DNA of 64,000 nucleotides. Source: a virus (taxonomy: Duplodnaviria; Caudoviricetes). The stretch's first letter is position 1. The number at the start of each line of letters is the position of its first letter. Below are positions 5,290 to 55,771 of this stretch, piece after piece. The stretch is from the IMG/VR virus record IMGVR_UViG_3300021960_000017; one strand, given 5' to 3'. The notes under the pieces were generated by a model. It saw only the letters and a program-made list of their open reading frames with translations, was not told where the DNA came from and did no database searches. The translations under genes and the position numbers were made by a program.

Positions 5290-5598
5290 TTATAATAGTT
5301 TCTTTTTTAGGATTTGGCGCACATCGTCATCTGAAAACTTAATATGCCAAGTGCCATTAAATGTTACATAATCAACATTTGTCAAATATGCATAGTCTTT
5401 ATTATCTGTTGTCATGGTACTGTATTGAAACAGTTCAGATAATATTAAATCTTTATACCTGATAGTGTTTATTTTGATATAACTATCAGAGTGTGTTCTA
5501 TAATTTTTTCCGTAAAAATGTAATTTTACTTCAGTAGGTGATATTTCTTCACGCTTTATATAAAATGGACCTATAGTTTCAAATTCAAATTCTATCAT
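5290..5598 (-). CDS. hypothetical protein
   Basis: 102 aa ORF coupled to the upstream gene. Confidence 0.55.
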   Translation of the reverse strand: MIEFEFETIGPFYIKREEISPTEVKLHFYGKNYRTHSDSYIKINTIRYKDLILSELFQYSTMTTDNKDYAYLTNVDYVTFNGTWHIKFSDDDVRQILKKKLL

Positions 5599-9887: not shown

Positions 9888-9949
9888 AACTTTTACTTTT
9901 CCGTGATAAATATCAGTAAGCTCGAAATGATCGGGCAATGGAGAAAGAA

Positions 9950-25358: not shown

Positions 25359-25631
25359 TTGTTAACACTATACACAAAAAATTTATGCCCTTATTGCGAT
25401 ATGGCTAAAACATATCTACTTGCTTATGAAATTCCCTTTACAGAAGTAAACATTGAAGAAGATACTGAAGCACGAGAGTTTGTATTAAGCAAAGGCCATC
25501 GCACAGTGCCACAGATATACCGAGACGGAGAATTATTTGTTGAGGGCGGCGCTGAAGGCTTGATTAAAGTAGGTCATGAAACTATCAAAGAGCGTTTAGG
25601 TGATTTAAATCTAGGCGGCCTAAGTCTCTGA
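25359..25631 (+). CDS. glutaredoxin
   Basis: CPYC active site, TVPQI, GG; TTG start. Confidence 0.92.
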   Translation: MLTLYTKNLCPYCDMAKTYLLAYEIPFTEVNIEEDTEAREFVLSKGHRTVPQIYRDGELFVEGGAEGLIKVGHETIKERLGDLNLGGLSL

Positions 25632-25668: not shown

Positions 25669-25953
25669 ATGGCAAGACCTGTAGTAAGAATCGGTGACAG
25701 AAATAGTGCTGGCGGCGTAGCAGTTAGTCCAGTGCGTAATGTGCATGCTAATTTTAGACCTTTTGCAAGGTTTATGAGTAGTGTAACACCTCACCCCCCA
25801 TGTCCTAGAGTTCCAATCCACTGTGGCGCAAAAGCAGCATTGCCAGGCAGTAGAACAGTTCGTGCTGGTGGCAGACCTGTTGTTAGACGTGGAGATGTAG
25901 ACACTTGTGGACACCCTAGAGCATCAGGTTCTAGAAACGTCTTGTGTGGATAA
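25669..25953 (+). CDS. PAAR-like spike tip protein
   Basis: VVRIGD...VTPHPPC..H...GRPVVRRGDVDTCGH..ASGSRNV. Confidence 0.85.
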   Translation: MARPVVRIGDRNSAGGVAVSPVRNVHANFRPFARFMSSVTPHPPCPRVPIHCGAKAALPGSRTVRAGGRPVVRRGDVDTCGHPRASGSRNVLCG

Positions 25954-25956
25954 TTA

Positions 25957-27858
25957 ATGGCAACTATTAAAGCAACTATCACTAGTCTTGGTCTTAATGC
26001 ACTGGGTGGTGCAGTAAATGGTCAGGGTTTAAATAACCTAGGTAAAATTTTAAGTCAGCCTATGTCTAACCTTGGTGGATTTGGCGGTCAGATGGATGCC
26101 CAGGCTAAAATTGCAAATATAATTAAAACAGATTACGATACTCCAGCATTATTAAATGCTGGTGGTTTTAATCCATTAGTTTACCTTAGCAATGCATTAA
26201 CTGGTGTAGCAGATGAAGTAGGCAGCGCAACTAGTGATGGTCGTGGTGCTATTTCCGGATCACTAGGATCAGGTTTTCAAGCTCTAGATGGATCAGGTAT
26301 AGTAGATGCAATTAGTATACACACAGAGTACCTTAAAGGAAGTTATGGTGCTAATAGTATTATGCAGTGTTTTGTTGGTGTAGAAGCATTTTGCTTTATC
26401 AGTAAAGAAATGTACCAAACACTCGAAGGCGGTCTAGCAGCTCGTTTTGGTAGCGCATTTGCTGCGTTAAACAGTAGTTTACCAGCAAGTGAAACATTAT
26501 CAGCAGTAGATAGTACATTTTTAGCAAATAATAGTAACAGTGAAGTAGAGGAAATATTAGGTGGCGAATATGCCTTTACCAATTTTCTTGGTGTTAATAT
26601 AAACAACATCACAGACGCAATAACAAATGGTTTTAGTAATTTTATTACTGGTAATGTAAAAACAACTTTAGCACAACTTGCAGTTGATTTTACCAACCTT
26701 GGTAATGCGTATGATCTTACAGACATAGACAACTTTGGAAATCCCGGACAGATAGTAGACAGATTAATTAGTGTGGGTGCTGGTGATATTACGGGTGTAA
26801 TAGATGCTATGCAGGATATTGGTGGAAATCAATTACTTGCAAATGTTGGTAATTTATCCAGTAGCCAGTTTAACAGTCAATTAACAGATGCATTAAGTTT
26901 AATTACCAACTCTGAGATGATTGCAATAGCGCAACAAGCATTAGGTAGTAATGTTCCTAATTTGACTAGTTTGGCTGACTTAACTGATATAAGGAAAGTA
27001 TTACCAACGAGTTTTGATAATATTAGTCCTAATACTTTTACTCAACTAGTTGTTGAACTTAAAAATTTAAATATTGGAAATTTACAAACACCGCAACAAC
27101 TTGGTACATTACTCGGACGATTCGATTTTCCTGTAAGTTTGCCTACAATAGAAAATTCAACAGTATTAATTGACAATGACGCCGCTGCAAATATTAGAAC
27201 TAAGTTTTTAAATAAAAACTTTAAAGACATGAAAGTAAGTGATGCAATAGGGTCACTTGCGGGTGTTGGTATAAGAAACCCAATTACTAGGTTTACTAAT
27301 GCTATGACAGAAATGGCTAACGCTGGTGCATTTACTGCATTAAATGCTTTATATACTCGTCTTAATGCAGGGTTAAATGGAGATTATAATACAGGCGCTG
27401 TATATGGTGTAGATACTATTGATGATCCGGTAACCAGTATAAGTTATAATGACATGGATGCGTTTGTTAATGCTACACTTTCCCTTATTGGCGCAGAGAT
27501 AACCAGCATTGCGAGCACGGCTGCTTACAGTGATGCTTTTAATAGAGCCCGTGATGCAATTACAGAAATACAGCAAAAAATTTACGATGAAAGCATTACA
27601 TATATTCCTATGATGGATTTGCATTTAAATGATAGAAATAATGATCCTGTAAATGTATATGGTTTTGCGACAAGCATGGAGTCAAGAGTAGAAGACCCTG
27701 ATGCTTTAGATGTACTAAAAGGATTAGCAGAGGCGGCTAAATTACAGAATGATAAGTTTGGTAGCTATTGGGACGCATTTATAAGCGAAACCGTTAATAG
27801 AAACGCTGTTCAAACGCATTCAATAGACTGGATTGCAGAAGATAAAATAGAAATTTAA
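25957..27858 (+). CDS. putative tail/baseplate protein
   Basis: 633 aa A/G/N/S-rich, follows PAAR. Confidence 0.5.
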   Translation: MATIKATITSLGLNALGGAVNGQGLNNLGKILSQPMSNLGGFGGQMDAQAKIANIIKTDYDTPALLNAGGFNPLVYLSNALTGVADEVGSATSDGRGAISGSLGSGFQALDGSGIVDAISIHTEYLKGSYGANSIMQCFVGVEAFCFISKEMYQTLEGGLAARFGSAFAALNSSLPASETLSAVDSTFLANNSNSEVEEILGGEYAFTNFLGVNINNITDAITNGFSNFITGNVKTTLAQLAVDFTNLGNAYDLTDIDNFGNPGQIVDRLISVGAGDITGVIDAMQDIGGNQLLANVGNLSSSQFNSQLTDALSLITNSEMIAIAQQALGSNVPNLTSLADLTDIRKVLPTSFDNISPNTFTQLVVELKNLNIGNLQTPQQLGTLLGRFDFPVSLPTIENSTVLIDNDAAANIRTKFLNKNFKDMKVSDAIGSLAGVGIRNPITRFTNAMTEMANAGAFTALNALYTRLNAGLNGDYNTGAVYGVDTIDDPVTSISYNDMDAFVNATLSLIGAEITSIASTAAYSDAFNRARDAITEIQQKIYDESITYIPMMDLHLNDRNNDPVNVYGFATSMESRVEDPDALDVLKGLAEAAKLQNDKFGSYWDAFISETVNRNAVQTHSIDWIAEDKIEI

Positions 27859-27890
27859 CAAATTTTTCCAGTATTACTTACATAAATAAA

Positions 27891-28170
27891 CACTGTAACG
27901 TCGAAGGGCGTTGAAAAACGTAATGGACATGGGGGCAGTACCCATCGTCTCCACCATAAGCACATGGCATTTGTAGTGTGTTTATGTGGGGACGAACCAG
28001 GATCGACATGCGTGGAGTATACAACTGGAGTTATCGGTAGGCGTGACCGTAAATCAGCAAAACAAAGTAAATGCAAACGATAATTTTGCATCTGAGGATT
28101 TTGCCCTAGCGGCATAATACCTATGGGCGTACAGGGCGCCTGGAAACAGAAGGGACTTAGGTCCCACCTG
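27891..28170 (+). ncRNA. ssrA: circularly permuted (two-piece) tmRNA, alphaproteobacterial type
   Basis: 3' acceptor piece GGACATGGGGGCAGTACCCATCGTCTCCACCA ends at 27956; hairpin spacer; 5' piece GGGGACGAACCAGGATCGAC starts at 27988; tag frame 28073-28117 ANDNFASEDFALAA*; TAAATA at 27883; 5' boundary and 3' end approximate. Confidence 0.93.
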
Positions 28171-28195
28171 CATTCTTCAGAATAAGGAGTTTAAT

Positions 28196-29137
28196 ATGAA
28201 GAAGCTAATAGTTGCTGCCGCTGCGGTAGCATGTTTAACAACACCTGCGATAGCAGAAGAAAAGGCTGCAAGTCCTATTGATAACATGAACATCAAGACA
28301 TTCGGCCAAGTTCGTGCATATGCACAGGTAGATTCACGTGACAATGTTGATGCAGAAGTAACTTCTGATACAACTAGATTTGGCTTTACAGCTAATGGTC
28401 AGGCAGGTGCAGTTGGTCTATTCGGTGAATTAAGTGCAAATGTTAATGCCAATGACGGCAACGCACTTACAACCCGCTTTGGTTATGTTGGTGCTTCACT
28501 ACCAAAACTTGGTAGCATTAGCCTAGGTAGACAGCATAGCGTACAAGACGGTTTCACTGATCAGGCAGACATCTTCATGAGTGCAGGCAACAACAGTATT
28601 CAGCAAATGGGCTTTTACCAAAACAATAGTGTAAAGTACACAAATGAATTTGGTGGTGTCAAAGTTGCAGCACTTGTTGCAATGGCTGATGGCGACGCTG
28701 CAAACAACGACATTGACCGTTACGAAGTAGGCGTTAGTGCTTATGGTTTTGGCGTTTCAATGGGCAAAGAAGAAGATACTGATACATCATACTATGGCAT
28801 TGGTTACGGCGCAACATACGGTAAGCTCACTGTTGGTGCAACTTACAGCATCAAAGACGTAAACGATGGTGGTGGTTTTGGCGATATTATCCTGTACAAC
28901 AGTGACAAGACTACTGCGGTTACCCGTGGTGCAGAAGTTGCTGTAGGTTTCGCTATGACAGACAAGATCACAATCAACGGTGGTTACAATGTTACAGACG
29001 CTGACGGTGACGAAGGTAATGCTATTGGTGAAGTAGTATACGGCCTTGGTTCAAACGCTGTAGCATTTGCTAGTGTTGAATACGATATTGATGCAAGCGA
29101 GTCAATCACTCGTGCAGGTCTCAATATTAAATTCTAA
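28196..29137 (+). CDS. Gram-negative porin
   Basis: Signal peptide, FGQVR...TTRFGF, TRFGYVG...LGSISLGRQ, terminal LNIKF; AAGGAG RBS. Confidence 0.85.
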   Translation: MKKLIVAAAAVACLTTPAIAEEKAASPIDNMNIKTFGQVRAYAQVDSRDNVDAEVTSDTTRFGFTANGQAGAVGLFGELSANVNANDGNALTTRFGYVGASLPKLGSISLGRQHSVQDGFTDQADIFMSAGNNSIQQMGFYQNNSVKYTNEFGGVKVAALVAMADGDAANNDIDRYEVGVSAYGFGVSMGKEEDTDTSYYGIGYGATYGKLTVGATYSIKDVNDGGGFGDIILYNSDKTTAVTRGAEVAVGFAMTDKITINGGYNVTDADGDEGNAIGEVVYGLGSNAVAFASVEYDIDASESITRAGLNIKF

Positions 29138-29161: not shown

Positions 29162-29196
29162 AGAGGGGAGAGTAAAATCTCCCCTCTTCTTTTTTT
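29162..29196 (+). terminator. intrinsic terminator
   Basis: AGAGGGGAGA-GTAAAA-TCTCCCCTCT plus T-run. Confidence 0.85.
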
Positions 29197-29238
29197 GCCT
29201 GCTATAAATATGATATCTACAGGTAGGTACACACATAC

Positions 29239-41000: not shown

Positions 41001-41426
41001 ATGAATACTCTTACAACTTTTGACATCCCCACACTGAACAGAAACTTTATCGGCATTGATCGTTTGCTTGATCGTATGCTGGTTAATGGACAAACCCAAG
41101 AAGGGTATCCTCCATACAACGTGGTAAAACTTGACGACGATAACTTTGAAATTGAGCTTGCAGTAGCAGGTTTTGGCGAAAAGGATATTGAAGTCACTGT
41201 ACATAACGGAGTACTTGCTATTGAAGGCAAGACTGCTGAAGCCCAAACAGAACGTACATTCCTCCACAAGGGAATCAGCAGCCGTAAATTCCGTCGTACA
41301 TTTAACCTTGCAGATCATGTAGAGGTTAAAGATGCAAAGGTACGTGATGGCATTCTTAGTATTGCACTAGAACGCCAAGTACCTGAAGAATTAAAACCAC
41401 GCAAAATTTCAGTAAATTTCGTGTAA
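41001..41426 (+). CDS. small heat shock protein Hsp20 (IbpA-like)
   Basis: YPPYNVVK, IELAVAGF, FLHKGISSRKFRRTF, DGILSI. Confidence 0.95.
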   Translation: MNTLTTFDIPTLNRNFIGIDRLLDRMLVNGQTQEGYPPYNVVKLDDDNFEIELAVAGFGEKDIEVTVHNGVLAIEGKTAEAQTERTFLHKGISSRKFRRTFNLADHVEVKDAKVRDGILSIALERQVPEELKPRKISVNFV

Positions 41427-41432
41427 ATATAT

Positions 41433-41464
41433 GTGCGGGGAGAGCAATCTCCCCGCATACTTTC
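41433..41464 (+). terminator. hairpin/terminator
   Basis: GTGCGGGGAGA-GCAA-TCTCCCCGCAT. Confidence 0.7.
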
Positions 41465-41474
41465 GGAGTTTTAT

Positions 41475-41780
41475 ATGTCTGAAAAAACAAACACAAAAAT
41501 TAAGGTTCGTCCTATAATTGAAAAGGAACCGCCTAAAGATTACAAGGTTATTTTTGTAAATGATCAAGTAACTACATTTGAGTTTGTTTGCGATAGTCTA
41601 GTGACTGTTTTTGATTATGATGAGTCAAAAGCACAAAAGAAAACACAAGAAATCCATGCCCAGGGTGCAGGCGTAGTTGCTGTACTTCCTTTTGAAATTG
41701 CAGAACAAAAAGGTGTGGAAGTTTTAGTACAAGCCCGTAATCAGGGCTATCCCTTAGAAGTTAAATTAGAACAAGAATAA
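41475..41780 (+). CDS. clpS: ATP-dependent Clp protease adaptor ClpS
   Basis: PPKDYKVIFVNDQVTTFEFV, EIHAQGAGVV, EIAEQK, YPLEVKLE; ATG at 41475 with GGAG RBS. Confidence 0.9.
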   Translation: MSEKTNTKIKVRPIIEKEPPKDYKVIFVNDQVTTFEFVCDSLVTVFDYDESKAQKKTQEIHAQGAGVVAVLPFEIAEQKGVEVLVQARNQGYPLEVKLEQE

Positions 41781-47681: not shown

Positions 47682-48128
47682 ATGAAAACTGTCATAGTTA
47701 CAGTTGTTTTCAGTTATGTACTGTTGACTCAGGCATTTGCAAGTGAGTTAAGGCAGACTTGGAAAAGCCCTGCATTTAGTGGACAAGGCTATAGCAGTCA
47801 TGTATTGACCATTGAAAATCTAACACATCAACGCAAAGCAGAAATTAAATCAAAAGAAGAAGCCGCAGCAAGAGAAGCGGAACGAGACGCTGAAAATACA
47901 AACATTAATAAGTTCCTAAGAAACTTTGAAAGCCGAGTATATGCTGAATTGAGTAAACAGTTAAGTGAAAAACTGTTTGGAGAAGCAGCACAAGACAGTG
48001 GCACAATTGATATTATGGGAAATACTATTGAGTATAGTAGTGATGGAACAGCCGTGACAATGATTGTTACTGATGCTGATGGAACCACTACTACTCTTGT
48101 AGTACCACTATCAGGATTTGGATTCTGA
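47682..48128 (+). CDS. csgF: curli assembly protein CsgF-like
   Basis: Signal peptide; ASEL....KSPAFSG.G; FLRNFESRVYAELSKQL. Confidence 0.8.
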   Translation: MKTVIVTVVFSYVLLTQAFASELRQTWKSPAFSGQGYSSHVLTIENLTHQRKAEIKSKEEAAAREAERDAENTNINKFLRNFESRVYAELSKQLSEKLFGEAAQDSGTIDIMGNTIEYSSDGTAVTMIVTDADGTTTTLVVPLSGFGF

Positions 48129-48970
48129 TGTTAAGACTTGCTGCAATATGTTTACTAGCCTTGGGCTTGAGTGGGTGTATGATGGGCCACGAAGTTGCAA
48201 AAACTATGGAGCCCAGTGTGGCAGTAACTCCAATGCAACCTGGATTAAGAGACTTTCCCAAAATATCCAATGGCAAGCCAGTAACAGTTGCAGTTTATAA
48301 TTTTCTTGATAAAACAGGACAACGCAAGCCTGCAGATAACATAGCAAACATTAGCACTGCTGTTACCCAGGGTGCAGAGATATATTTAATTAAAGCATTA
48401 GACGATATTGCTGACGGAAACTTCTTTGATGTAGTCGAACGCAACGGAATGGAATCACTTATAAAAGAACGACAAATTATTCGCCAGGCACGAGAAAAGT
48501 ATGATCCCAATAAAGACCTGGCACCATTAAAATTTGCAGGTGTTATTATTGAAGGTGGTATTGTTGGATACGATTCCAACAAACATACAGGCGGCGCCGG
48601 CGCAAGAATAATGGGCATCGGACCACAAACAGAGTGGCGTGTTGATATTGTTACGGTAGGTATTAGAGCAGTAAGCGTTTTAACAGGCGAAGTTATATTA
48701 GCAGTTAGTGCGGAGAAGACAATACTAAGTACCAACACCGCTATTAATGTATTCAGATTTTATGATTTAGGCACAAAAGTTTTAGAAATTGAAGCTGGCA
48801 CTAGTACAAATGAGCCAGTCAATTATGCGGTACGGCAAGCAATAGAGTTCGCCGTGGTGCAGATGGTAGAAGAGGGAAAGAGAAAAGGATACTGGAATTA
48901 TGATAGCACAAAAATTCCAGAAAAATTTATAAAGAAGGAGTCTACACTCGATTTAAGAGACGTCAAGTAA
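48128..48970 (+). CDS. csgG: curli secretion channel CsgG
   Basis: Lipobox LSGC; VAVYNFLDKTGQRKP, STAVTQGA, FDVVER, LIKERQIIR, IIEGGIVGYD, EPVNYAVR. Confidence 0.92.
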   Translation: MLRLAAICLLALGLSGCMMGHEVAKTMEPSVAVTPMQPGLRDFPKISNGKPVTVAVYNFLDKTGQRKPADNIANISTAVTQGAEIYLIKALDDIADGNFFDVVERNGMESLIKERQIIRQAREKYDPNKDLAPLKFAGVIIEGGIVGYDSNKHTGGAGARIMGIGPQTEWRVDIVTVGIRAVSVLTGEVILAVSAEKTILSTNTAINVFRFYDLGTKVLEIEAGTSTNEPVNYAVRQAIEFAVVQMVEEGKRKGYWNYDSTKIPEKFIKKESTLDLRDVK

Positions 48971-48995: not shown

Positions 48996-49697
48996 ATGAG
49001 AGGCATAGTAGTAGGAGGAGCAATATTGCTATTAGCAATGTCCAGTAGGGCATTTGCTGATAACTTGATCTATATAGATCAAACAGGCAGTAGTGCAACC
49101 ATAAACATTAACCAGGACGGTACAGGTAACCGTGTTGGTGCAAGTGGCGATGACAGCGTAAGTGATGGTGCAACCACCACTATGGACATCGATCAAGTTG
49201 GTACAAGCAACGTCTTGGATTATGATATCTATGGCGACACAGCCAACATTACTTCCAATATAACTGGTAACTCATCAGACATTGATATTCAGGTTGGTAC
49301 CACAGGCGGTAGCAACGGTGGATCAGATGATGTTGACATTACAATTAATGCAAGCGGCGGTAACTCAAATACAGTTAGTGCAAATGTGGGCACATCCGCA
49401 AGTGGTGTTGATGATGTTGACATTGATGTTGATATTACTGGCGGAAGTAATAGTGTAACAATAACAGAAAACTCAACAGCAGCAAGTATTTCAGATAAAA
49501 TCACAGATGTAGATATTACTGGTAGTACAAACACTGTCACAGCAACAAAGAGCGGTGCTTCACAGCACGACACAACATTGAATATAACAGGCTCAAGTAA
49601 TACATTTAGTGTTACACAGTCTGGAGCAGAAGCGAGCACTGTAGATGTTACAACGAACGGGTCTAGTAGTAGCGTTACTATTACTGTTACAGATTAA
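48996..49697 (+). CDS. curlin-repeat-like secreted protein
   Basis: Signal peptide; repeated I-x-Q/I-x-G-x-x-N units (IDQTGSS, NQDGTGN, DQVGTSN, ITGSTN). Confidence 0.75.
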   Translation: MRGIVVGGAILLLAMSSRAFADNLIYIDQTGSSATININQDGTGNRVGASGDDSVSDGATTTMDIDQVGTSNVLDYDIYGDTANITSNITGNSSDIDIQVGTTGGSNGGSDDVDITINASGGNSNTVSANVGTSASGVDDVDIDVDITGGSNSVTITENSTAASISDKITDVDITGSTNTVTATKSGASQHDTTLNITGSSNTFSVTQSGAEASTVDVTTNGSSSSVTITVTD

Positions 49698-50727
49698 TTT
49701 TGTAACAGAGTCACATGCAGCCGTAGGGCAAGTTGAACAGCAGTTGGGTACTGCTGAAGTGCTGCGATCTGGTGACAAAAAGACCAGCAGTGTTGGATTT
49801 GGCATAGAGATGATGGATGAAGTCAGATCCGGCAACGGTATTGTAGGTATAGGATTTGAAGATCAAACAAAAGTTCGTGTTGACAAACATTCAAAGTTAG
49901 TCATAGATGATTTTATCTATGACCCCAAGAAACCCAATGCAAGCAAACTAGGACTAAAGGTTGCGTTGGGCACTGTCCGATATGCCAGTGGACTTATTGC
50001 TAAACAGAATAGACAGTCTGTTAGCATCCGCACTCCCACCGCTTCCATTGGTGTAAGAGGAACGGCATTCAGTATGACTGTGGATGAGATAGGTCGTTCA
50101 TTAGTCATACTGTTGCCTAACCCGGACGGCACAGTAGGTGAAATTGCTGTTACAAGTGATGTAGGAACTGTCATAATGAATCAAGCATTCCAGGCTACAC
50201 TTGTTACTGCTACTGAAAAGCCACCTGCTAAACCAGTAATACTGGATCTATCAGAGGCAATGATTAATAACCTCCTAATTATCAATCGCCCTAAAAGAAT
50301 TGAAAAAGAATACTCAACAGATGAAGAAAGTAGCAATGTCCTAGATTTTAATGAACTGGACGTTGACTACCTAGCAGCAAATGAACTTGAAGAAGAGCAA
50401 TTAGAATTTACAAGACTGGACTTTAACTTGTTAGATGCTGATTTACTACAAAATATTCTGGACATTGTAAACAGACGATTAGCAAGTGCAGATCGTTTTC
50501 CAACCAATCCTATATTTTCAGGACAATACGAAGGTGGTAACACACAGATATTTGGCGGCGAGAATGAAGATTGGGAAATATACAGACAAGTTGATGGACG
50601 CATAGTTAGTATTAAAACGCCAAGCACACAGGATACTCAGATAATTTTAAATCAAGCAGGTAGTGCAGTTACATTACACACAACGGAGGATGCTAGTGAT
50701 TCGGTTATTACTATTACTCAAAATTAG
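49645..50727 (+). CDS. FecR-domain periplasmic protein
   Basis: Signal/TM; DEVRSGNG, FEDQTKVRV..HSKLVID, IRTPTASIGVRGT. Confidence 0.85.
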   Translation: MLQRTGLVVALLLLLQINFVTESHAAVGQVEQQLGTAEVLRSGDKKTSSVGFGIEMMDEVRSGNGIVGIGFEDQTKVRVDKHSKLVIDDFIYDPKKPNASKLGLKVALGTVRYASGLIAKQNRQSVSIRTPTASIGVRGTAFSMTVDEIGRSLVILLPNPDGTVGEIAVTSDVGTVIMNQAFQATLVTATEKPPAKPVILDLSEAMINNLLIINRPKRIEKEYSTDEESSNVLDFNELDVDYLAANELEEEQLEFTRLDFNLLDADLLQNILDIVNRRLASADRFPTNPIFSGQYEGGNTQIFGGENEDWEIYRQVDGRIVSIKTPSTQDTQIILNQAGSAVTLHTTEDASDSVITITQN

Positions 50728-53713: not shown

Positions 53714-55771
53714 ATGGGAAAACTTTTAACCAGCACTTGGATGGCTGTTGTAACTCTATTAATATTAGTCACCCTGCGTGTTTGGGACCCAGCTCCTGTA
53801 GAAACACTGCGACTAAAAGGCTTTGATTACTTACAAAGCCAAGAGCAAAAACAGCAAAGCAAAGACATTGTACTCTTAGACATAGGTGAACCTAGTCTGG
53901 ATGCGTTTGGTCAGTGGCCCTGGCCACGTGATTACTTTGCAAGCATAATGATGAAGTTGCGTGAAAATGGCGCACAACTTATAACATTTGTAGTGTTTTT
54001 CCCAGAAGCAGATCGTATGCAACAGGATCCTGCATTTGCAGATATACTGTCACAGGATCCCTATACAATACTAGCACAAACAGCAACTAACCGTGCGCTT
54101 AAAACACACGGCAAACACATTGCAGCAAACTGGATAGGTGATGATCCCACACCCTGGTTATACAACTGGCCCGGACTTGTTAAGAACATTGACCTATTAG
54201 AAAATGCTGCTAAAGGTGTTGGCATGGTTGCAGTAGCACCTGAAGTGGATAATCTTGTTAGACGACTACCCTTGGTGGTAAGGATTGCGGATCAAATATA
54301 TCCTAACCTTGCTATAGAGTTTATTCGTGTAGCAACCGGTGATCCTGGTTATCAGATTAAAACAGGTGAAAGTGGTATTCAGGCCGTAAGAGTGCCTGGA
54401 TATAATGTTGTTAAAACTGATCCTCATAGTAGAATGTGGATTGACTTTAACAAAACCTATGACAGAATTGAAGTGTCGGAGGAAGACTGGAGCAGGGTAA
54501 ATGGCAAGCATGTGTTCATTGGAACTACAGCAGCCGGACTTGCCAACTTCATTAGTACGCCAACGGGCCTTGTATATCCACATGAAATACAAGCGAGCCT
54601 GGTTCAAACAATCCTAGATGGAACCTTTATACAACGACAAGACTTTATGAACACACTGGAAGCAATAGCGTTTGCAGTGTTTGGCATAATACTCTTGTTG
54701 GTTGTTCCCCGTACAAGCGTCTTGCTCACAGTACCAGTATTGCTGTTATACCTGGGCGGCGTAGGGGGTTACAGTTATTATGAGTGGACAGATAGTAAAA
54801 ATCTTGTGGACGCAACCTTCCCAATGGCAGCGGGCTTTTTACTATTTGCTCATCTCATATACAATAACTTTGCAAGAGAATTCCGTCAGAAGATGGAAAT
54901 TAAAAAACAGTTTGCAGGTTATTGCTCACCCGAAGTTGTTAAAATACTTCAAACAAATCCGGACTTGATCAAGAAGGGTGTTAAAAAAGATGTTAGCGTT
55001 ATGTTTAGTGATTTGCGTGGATTTACTCCCATTGGCGAACATTATGGTGACGATGTACAAGGCTTAGGAGAATATATGAATGGGTATATGGACTCAATTA
55101 CCCGACCAATTCTGGAAAAAAATGGTATGGTTATTAAGTATGTTGGGGATGCTAGCATGCATATCCATGGCGCTCCTATCGACGATCCTAATCATGCTCA
55201 TACTTGTGTGGATGTTGGATTAAAGATGATAGATGCTGTACAAAAATACAGCGCAGAAAAGGTAGCACAAGGATTACCCAAAGCAGAGATGGGCTTTGGT
55301 ATTAACACTGGTGATGGCTTTATTGGCGAGATGGGATCAACTGCCAGACACAGTTATGACATTTTAGGCGATATGGTTAGCACCGCAGCACGTCTAGAAG
55401 CACGTTGTAAGGCATATGGTGTACTGTGTATTATTGGTGCAGAAACATACAAACGCACCAGTGACGACTTCTTTTACTTGTTCTTAGATAACCTACAGCC
55501 CAAAGGCAAAAGCACTCCAGACTTTATCTATACAGCTCTAGGTGGCGACAGTAGTGGTTGGACCAAACACAAGTCAGATCATATTGAAATGCACAAACTT
55601 TACAAAGCACAAAAGTTTGATGAAGCCATTGCGATGTGTAAAACGATGTATGGTAACTTTGATGGTAAGATGGACAAGTATTATGACATCTGGATAGAGC
55701 GTTGCGAACTAATGAAGACACAGGACTTGCCCAAGGATTGGAACGGCGCATTTGTTGCTACGGAGAAATAA
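53714..55771 (+). CDS. CHASE2-domain class III adenylate/guanylate cyclase
   Basis: IVLLDIGE..L...GQWPWPR CHASE2; three TM helices; FSDLRGFT, KYVGDA, GINTG, GEMGS, ILGDMVSTAARLE. Confidence 0.92.
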   Translation: MGKLLTSTWMAVVTLLILVTLRVWDPAPVETLRLKGFDYLQSQEQKQQSKDIVLLDIGEPSLDAFGQWPWPRDYFASIMMKLRENGAQLITFVVFFPEADRMQQDPAFADILSQDPYTILAQTATNRALKTHGKHIAANWIGDDPTPWLYNWPGLVKNIDLLENAAKGVGMVAVAPEVDNLVRRLPLVVRIADQIYPNLAIEFIRVATGDPGYQIKTGESGIQAVRVPGYNVVKTDPHSRMWIDFNKTYDRIEVSEEDWSRVNGKHVFIGTTAAGLANFISTPTGLVYPHEIQASLVQTILDGTFIQRQDFMNTLEAIAFAVFGIILLLVVPRTSVLLTVPVLLLYLGGVGGYSYYEWTDSKNLVDATFPMAAGFLLFAHLIYNNFAREFRQKMEIKKQFAGYCSPEVVKILQTNPDLIKKGVKKDVSVMFSDLRGFTPIGEHYGDDVQGLGEYMNGYMDSITRPILEKNGMVIKYVGDASMHIHGAPIDDPNHAHTCVDVGLKMIDAVQKYSAEKVAQGLPKAEMGFGINTGDGFIGEMGSTARHSYDILGDMVSTAARLEARCKAYGVLCIIGAETYKRTSDDFFYLFLDNLQPKGKSTPDFIYTALGGDSSGWTKHKSDHIEMHKLYKAQKFDEAIAMCKTMYGNFDGKMDKYYDIWIERCELMKTQDLPKDWNGAFVATEK

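Follow-up and report, generated by a model that had tools for sequence, protein, structure and literature searches.

Phage-encoded two-piece tmRNAs are already documented, with 53 two-piece forms reported among 133 unique phage tmRNAs, mostly marine (PMC9004378), and 79 phage tmRNAs counted in all in another study (PMC11915505). The two-piece tmRNA of Caulobacter is functional (Keiler, Shapiro & Williams 2000, as cited in PMC9004378). Among cultured phages, a tmRNA is carried by the Sphingobium phage Lacusarx (PMC5648845) and the Caulobacter phage Shash (PMC13459779), which by description only are like the phage studied here in being large and having the tmRNA beside many tRNAs. The whole stretch of DNA that was analysed, 64,000 nucleotides of viral sequence which we call the window, holds a new, rather divergent and trimmed example of such a gene. 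Specific to this copy are a late-type box without a -35, a probable co-transcript with a porin gene, a hairpin inserted in the terminal pseudoknot and the failure of default ARAGORN to call it.

Melnitz and the pelagimyophages (Buchholz et al. 2022, PMC9004378) resemble the window's phage in being large marine phages with an alpha-type permuted ssrA, and Melnitz was the sole match when the tmRNA was searched against 50,697 phage records by blastn. A megablast search of 24 kb of the window against the same records returned a tRNA match only. The resemblance extends to the proteins, as the adenylate cyclase of the window is 47% identical to that of Melnitz and 38% to that of HTVC008M, a CsgG curli-pore gene is common to all three, and a cell-wall hydrolase is common to the window and Melnitz. 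In the window the CsgG gene (48128-48970) is found with a FecR-like gene (49645-50727) and the adenylate cyclase gene (53714-55771), an unusual module as described for pelagimyophages. The Melnitz tmRNA locus also has similar scores on the same Rfam models. However, BLAST aligns only 44 nt of the two tmRNAs, and our tree puts them in separate viral clades. The phages themselves are set apart by the DnaE-like polymerase of the window, which is 39% identical to that of a 484-kb uncultured phage, and by a virion protein whose nearest match is in cyanophage S-T4. A glutamine riboswitch (RF01739) is found by Rfam at 5355-5403 of the Melnitz locus (L001) and none in the window, and this 3' riboswitch of ssrA has been called non-defining (PMC9004378). 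Finally, the Melnitz ssrA is described as driven by an early promoter, whereas the window has a late-type box only and no sigma-70-type -35.

Compared with the cellular tmRNAs of Alphaproteobacteria (RF01849), the window copy has the same gene order, the same tRNA-like domain, a tag of the ANDNF...AA form and a terminal pseudoknot with the AACAGAA motif. It differs in being encoded by a virus, in lacking about 60 model positions 3' of the stop codon in the RF01849 alignment, and in scoring 112 bits on that model where most cellular alpha tmRNAs of 151 species score 160-313 bits.

The tmRNA gene and its fold

The gene is an intact, circularly permuted tmRNA gene of the alpha type at 27895-28172 on the + strand. 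In an Rfam scan of the whole window, RF04321 (tmRNA_permuted) matched 27895-28117 (+) with 120.8 bits (E 4.8e-23) and RF01849 (alpha_tmRNA) matched 27852-28160 (+) with 112 bits (E 9.7e-30), both far above the gathering scores of 47 and 50, respectively. Within the tRNA/tmRNA clan, alpha_tmRNA was the top family kept. The first-pass annotation, made from the letters alone, had described a permuted two-piece alpha-type tmRNA here and had proposed the alpha_tmRNA model or ARAGORN as a check. The covariance models bear out that description, and every element it described was found in its place. ARAGORN gave a split answer: at default settings it reported three tRNAs only in the window and left the tmRNA uncalled, while with relaxed scoring (-ps) it returned the label tmRNAp*, a permuted tmRNA, with the same tag as is read directly from the sequence. 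The remark in the annotation that standard callers miss the gene is thus correct for default ARAGORN, and Rfam detects the gene easily. This blindness is not confined to the window, as default ARAGORN missed 50 of 115 unique viral alpha-type permuted tmRNAs taken from IMG/VR loci (L002-L235). Surveys relying on ARAGORN therefore probably undercount phage two-piece tmRNAs, so that the published counts are probably too low, and annotation of the window's phage family requires covariance models.

The permuted order is given by the encoded CCA (27954-27956), a spacer (27957-27987) and GGGG from 27988, all on the + strand like the rest of the gene. The acceptor piece of 62 nt (27895-27956), which was delimited by the Rfam alignment, a base check and covariation, contains the 3' strands of helix P2 (27895-27899, 27918-27921 and 27923-27925), the T-arm (27929-27945), the acceptor 3' strand CGTCTCC (27946-27952, read from the bases) and the discriminator A27953 before the CCA. 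The spacer is 31 nt long, is presumed to be excised and has a 9-bp hairpin (27957-27965 with 27976-27984, -9.7 kcal/mol) with no nested gene inside. The coding piece of about 185 nt (27988-28172, from the Rfam and MAFFT alignments and covariation) starts with the acceptor 5' strand GGGGACG (27988-27994) and continues with the conserved AGGATCGAC (27999-28007), the 5' strands of P2 (28007-28013 and 28030-28034) and a hairpin at the position of pseudoknot 1 (PK1, 28035-28049) before the tag. The tag frame, read directly and by ARAGORN -ps, opens with the resume codon GCA at 28073, encodes ANDNFASEDFALAA (28073-28114) and ends with the stop TAA (28115-28117); the 3' pseudoknot region follows at 28125-28170 with an extra hairpin at 28152-28165.

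All the functional elements are intact. The tRNA-Ala-like domain is complete, with an acceptor stem of 7 canonical pairs that includes the alanine identity pair G3·U70 (G27990·T27950), a T-arm, and the discriminator A with CCA. The ACCA end, the conserved GGATCGAC and the A-rich TAAAT 5' of the resume codon are also present, and the tag has an Ala resume codon, an ANDN start and an ALAA end followed by the stop. The hairpin spacer, the P2 pairings and the tag agree with the earlier description. The pairing of the two halves had been put at 8 bp, of which seven pairs are canonical and stand; the eighth, A27995-T27945, takes a base that belongs to the T stem in the model. The window therefore carries a genuine phage-borne permuted two-piece tmRNA gene.

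Support for the fold comes from viral relatives. At least 234 distinct loci came from IMG/VR, which we scanned with patterns for the T-arm plus acceptor sequence and for the tag start, and once for an exact sequence. The closest among the matches listed (L192) is 77.5% identical over 227 nt, so none of those listed is close to the window. We aligned the window with 26 of the viral relatives by MAFFT and folded the 27 sequences with RNAalifold. Of the 35 pairs in the resulting fold, 17 show compensatory changes, and these fall in the T-arm, the acceptor stem, the inner P2, the base of the spacer hairpin and stem 1 of the 3' pseudoknot (28125-28128 with 28138-28141). The inner P2 (27918-27921 with 28010-28013 and 27923-27925 with 28007-28009) has 9-13 compensatory sequences per pair, and the G3·U70 pair is invariant in all 27. 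The outermost P2 pairs are kept in 24-25 of the 27 sequences, and the middle of P2 is poorly aligned and partly supported. Stem 2 of the 3' pseudoknot covaries clearly in the relatives by our own pair counts; in the window it is broken by the extra hairpin. At the PK1 position the feature is a hairpin only, paired in about half of the sequences, and the middle pseudoknots of cellular tmRNAs are absent from this RNA. The tag ANDNFASEDFALAA itself recurs unchanged on three IMG/VR loci (L026, L029 and L215). On L026 a freshwater-2 RNA motif (RF02980, 67 bits) was also found at 1167-1245, about 500 nt upstream of the tmRNA.

The spacer behaves as would be expected of a segment removed in maturation, since its length varies between 4 and 235 nt among 125 viral loci. 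Covariation at the foot of its stem (alignment columns 70-74 with 127-131) suggests a conserved processing helix.

Promoter, porin gene and phage surroundings

The tmRNA had been placed behind a late promoter and upstream of a porin. A promoter-like box CATAAATA, of T4-type late or -10-like character, lies at 27881-27888 (+) and would place the start at about 27894-27896. No -35 hexamer is found in the window at a spacing of 16-18 nt from this box, the position of which is occupied by TATAAAT in the relatives. Of 151 distinct upstream regions of relatives, 72 hold TTGACN followed by TANAWW after 16-18 nt, 62 of which also hold ATAAATA, and 17 have the ATAAATA box alone, as in the window. Across the whole window the + strand carries 18 copies of ATAAATA and the - strand 3. 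Of the + strand copies, 16 lie between genes, often 12-35 nt before a start codon (for example at 9906, 13159, 16224, 25657, 29204, 29871, 45039 and 47656). The total number in the window is not in excess over shuffled sequence. Judged from sequence, a late-type promoter for the tmRNA is plausible and ATAAATA looks like a late-promoter motif of this phage.

Downstream, a porin gene of 313 aa (28196-29137, +) has a signal peptide, a C-terminal Phe and a ribosome-binding site AAGGAG at 28186-28191. By itself it has no Pfam or PHROG match, and tblastn finds no match for it in the phage records. AlphaFold models the protein (pLDDT 67.7) with about 16 strands and a signal helix, and the model compares with OmpU, OmpK36, OmpF and Omp32 at a TM of about 0.7, so the porin that had been named at this place is borne out by a 16-strand porin fold. 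As a general porin it may serve in nutrient uptake, exclusion or receptor masking. Its homologues come from metagenomes only, at 50-89% identity, two of them with porin Pfam matches; they are located on phage-like contigs, and in a protein atlas the window porin lies among viral and proteobacterial porin clusters. On one Logan contig (L244), 96% identical over 232 nt, the 3' part of the tmRNA stands directly before the porin and the tag ends in ...FALVA. The pairing is not general, since on L236 and L240, two contigs with a porin gene (50-56% identity), the porin is not preceded by a tmRNA.

We found no terminator between the tmRNA and the porin gene. An intrinsic terminator at 29162-29197 (+), with a 10-bp stem including 6 GC pairs and a T-run, would close the presumed unit, and the two genes are probably co-transcribed. 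Additionally, three metatranscriptome libraries, each of a different study, have contigs that are 95-99% identical to the window, cover 27913-28283, spacer included, and run into the start of the porin gene; such contigs carry no information on RNA ends, start, strand or processing, and may come from DNA carry-over. Their ends at 27913 and 27927 should not be taken as RNA ends, nor the stretches without contig cover (27600-27884 and 28284-29300) as absence of transcript. The contigs are consistent with a precursor transcript running into the porin gene.

The genes around the tmRNA are almost all on the same strand, with phage genes on both sides for tens of kilobases. The window encodes a DnaB-type helicase, the DnaE-like polymerase, a ribonucleotide reductase, a PD-(D/E)XK exonuclease, a tail-spike-like protein, glutaredoxin, PAAR, an SNase-type nuclease, the cell-wall hydrolase, virion structural proteins and three tRNAs. 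A scan of about 50 window ORFs turned up no integrase. At least one phage protein is common to the window and 153 of the 234 tmRNA-bearing IMG/VR loci listed, and in many relatives the order is exonuclease, spike-like gene, nrdA, nrdB, tmRNA, nuclease and hydrolase. Given these common proteins and the kept order, the tmRNA sits in a conserved phage neighbourhood. The stretch also turns up in DNA data, where 16 runs from estuary, marine and aquatic metagenomes of several studies hold 25-98% of its sampled words, 10 of them at least half.

Other genes of the window deserve mention. The glutaredoxin gene (25359-25631) and the PAAR-motif gene (25669-25953) lie just upstream of a 633-aa ORF of no known family that precedes the tmRNA. 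About 13 kb downstream of the tmRNA, an Hsp20 gene (41001-41426, 72.4 bits) is immediately followed by a gene for a ClpS adaptor (41433-41780, 79.8 bits), and the two show that the phage has further protein quality-control genes. Window matches to ATE/Bpt-like (20.1 bits) and bL33 (19.4 bits) were under the Pfam cut-offs and were set aside.

The tmRNA as a proposed host marker

Permuted tmRNAs with ANDN-type tags had been called characteristic of Alphaproteobacteria, and our sampling agrees with this. RF01849 matches 146 of the 151 alphaproteobacterial species sampled, a tally that takes in one unpublished genome (G045) on which no specific claim depends, and all 45 bacterial alpha tags extracted start with ANDN. 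The assignment to the alpha type is thus sound.

It was a further step to call the gene the best host marker in the window, and this could not be sustained. The best cellular match by BLAST, among 401 alphaproteobacterial species, reaches 58 bits at about 73% over about 90 nt; the best of 17 bacterial loci with the same tag start reaches 54 bits, and the best of 20 small-genome alphaproteobacteria 50 bits. Viral contigs, on the other hand, reach 153 bits against the window tmRNA, compared with at most 58 bits in the approximately 420 alphaproteobacterial species sampled. Naming the host by tmRNA similarity was abandoned, as the cellular samples peak at 58 bits. We also built a tree of 241 unique sequences, in which the window falls within an all-viral clade of 9 (support 0.90), itself inside 26 viral tips and apart from a large viral clade of 68 tips; with 195 columns the resolution of this tree is low, and only the 9-tip clade is fairly supported. 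Melnitz provides a counter-example of its own, since it has an alpha-type tmRNA and yet its host OM43 is gamma/betaproteobacterial and not an alphaproteobacterium (PMC9004378). With viral nearest relatives and the case of Melnitz, the tmRNA can at most indicate that the gene came from Alphaproteobacteria, and not which host the phage has. The gene behaves as cargo of a phage lineage and is therefore unfit as a sole host marker, so that an alpha-type tmRNA alone should not be used to name the host of a phage.

The scans for the tag start gave two further observations on contigs assigned to bacteria. On a contig of Alphaproteobacteria bacterium UBA3002 (L262) the pattern occurs twice, at 1441-1461 and 1759-1779, 318 nt apart; a tandem duplication, or a copy restored by an island, may account for this. 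The pattern AATGCAAACGATAATTTTGCA is also found on MAG contigs of Actinomarina, Lactobacillaceae and Spirochaetota and on a scaffold of Moheibacter lacus (L251, L259, L264 and, for the scaffold, L267), which in the MAGs may reflect mis-binned phage or foreign DNA.

How the RNA may work, and other readings

Our preferred reading, which we hold to be likely, is that the locus encodes an intact two-piece tmRNA (ssrA) of the alphaproteobacterial type that works through host factors. The precursor would start at about 27895, just past CATAAATA, and would probably extend past the porin gene as far as the terminator at 29162-29197. Host RNase P would then cut 5' of G27988, the 3' trimming enzymes would stop at the encoded CCA (27956) and the spacer hairpin would be discarded, leaving the 62-nt acceptor piece and the coding piece of about 185 nt held together by the 7-bp acceptor stem and helix P2. 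Charging is expected from host AlaRS via G3·U70. With host SmpB and EF-Tu the RNA would enter stalled ribosomes, translation would resume at GCA 28073 and add (A)ANDNFASEDFALAA, and the tag end ...LAA would direct the product to Clp-type proteases of the host. The first-pass annotation had suggested looking for smpB, and tblastn and a small HMM find none in the 64-kb window; the reading thus assumes that the RNA is compatible with SmpB of the host. The phage would probably benefit from extra ribosome rescue and recycling of amino acids during the destruction of host mRNA and the bulk synthesis of structural proteins.

The phage tmRNA could instead compete with host trans-translation and re-programme it, taking the place of the host tmRNA on SmpB and ribosomes. 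Stalled products would then carry the 14-residue phage tag, and this, together with the phage ClpS, would redirect late proteolysis. Among the alternatives this reading is the one with the most in its favor, although we regard it as rather unlikely. The viral tags do form a family of their own, mostly of 14 aa with the pattern ANDNFA-x-x-x-[F/Y]-ALAA, while the bacterial tags sampled are mostly 10-13 aa. ClpS and Hsp20 are encoded by the phage, and the upstream box is of the late type. There is also precedent in the literature, as a mycobacteriophage tmRNA without a CDS inhibits host tmRNA (PMC11915505) and it has been suggested that phage tmRNA counteracts host tagging (PMC5648845). However, the window's tag has the ordinary ANDNF... 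start and ...ALAA end of alphaproteobacterial tags, so that there is no sign of an altered fate of the product. Nor does the tRNA-like domain depart in any way from the standard form, and the findings fit a simple supplementation of host tmRNA equally.

Much less probable again is that the gene is a passenger, a host ssrA acquired by imprecise excision or as a duplicate of an attachment site and without a lytic role. It is true that tmRNA genes are common integration sites and that ssrA fragments are frequent in phages (PMC9004378, PMC11915505), and this RNA is shorter than the cellular tmRNAs. Against this, what is found here is a complete gene and not a 3' fragment, with selection on its fold shown by the compensatory changes and by the G·U pair that is invariant across a viral clade. 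Its neighbourhood is that of a phage in many contigs, no integrase is present among the ORFs scanned and its nearest relatives are viral rather than cellular. Completeness, covariation, synteny and the absent integrase contradict this reading, and they contradict the next as well. The least probable reading of all, that host chromosome mis-joined to phage DNA or a prophage edge has brought in the host's own tmRNA, can draw on the prophage borders that IMG/VR pattern matches may include and on the likeness of the adjoining porin to a cellular gene, but it is at odds with the one-strand phage genes that flank the tmRNA on both sides, the same synteny in relatives, the porin homologues on phage-like contigs and viral porin clusters in the atlas, and the recovery of the stretch in DNA runs of several studies.

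Coming back to the intact tmRNA working via host factors, these findings may be part of a broader picture, which we put forward as a speculative and rather unlikely one. The alpha-type tmRNA would be a vertically inherited gene of a large aquatic phage family, evolving apart from the ssrA of its hosts. In the phage of the window it would have come to be expressed late, without the host-type -35 and as one unit with the porin, and together with ClpS and Hsp20 it would form a programme of ribosome rescue and proteolysis run by the virus in virion production. With its tmRNA-porin unit, and with ClpS and Hsp20 genes close by, the locus offers a concrete setting in which the function of phage tmRNAs can be tested.
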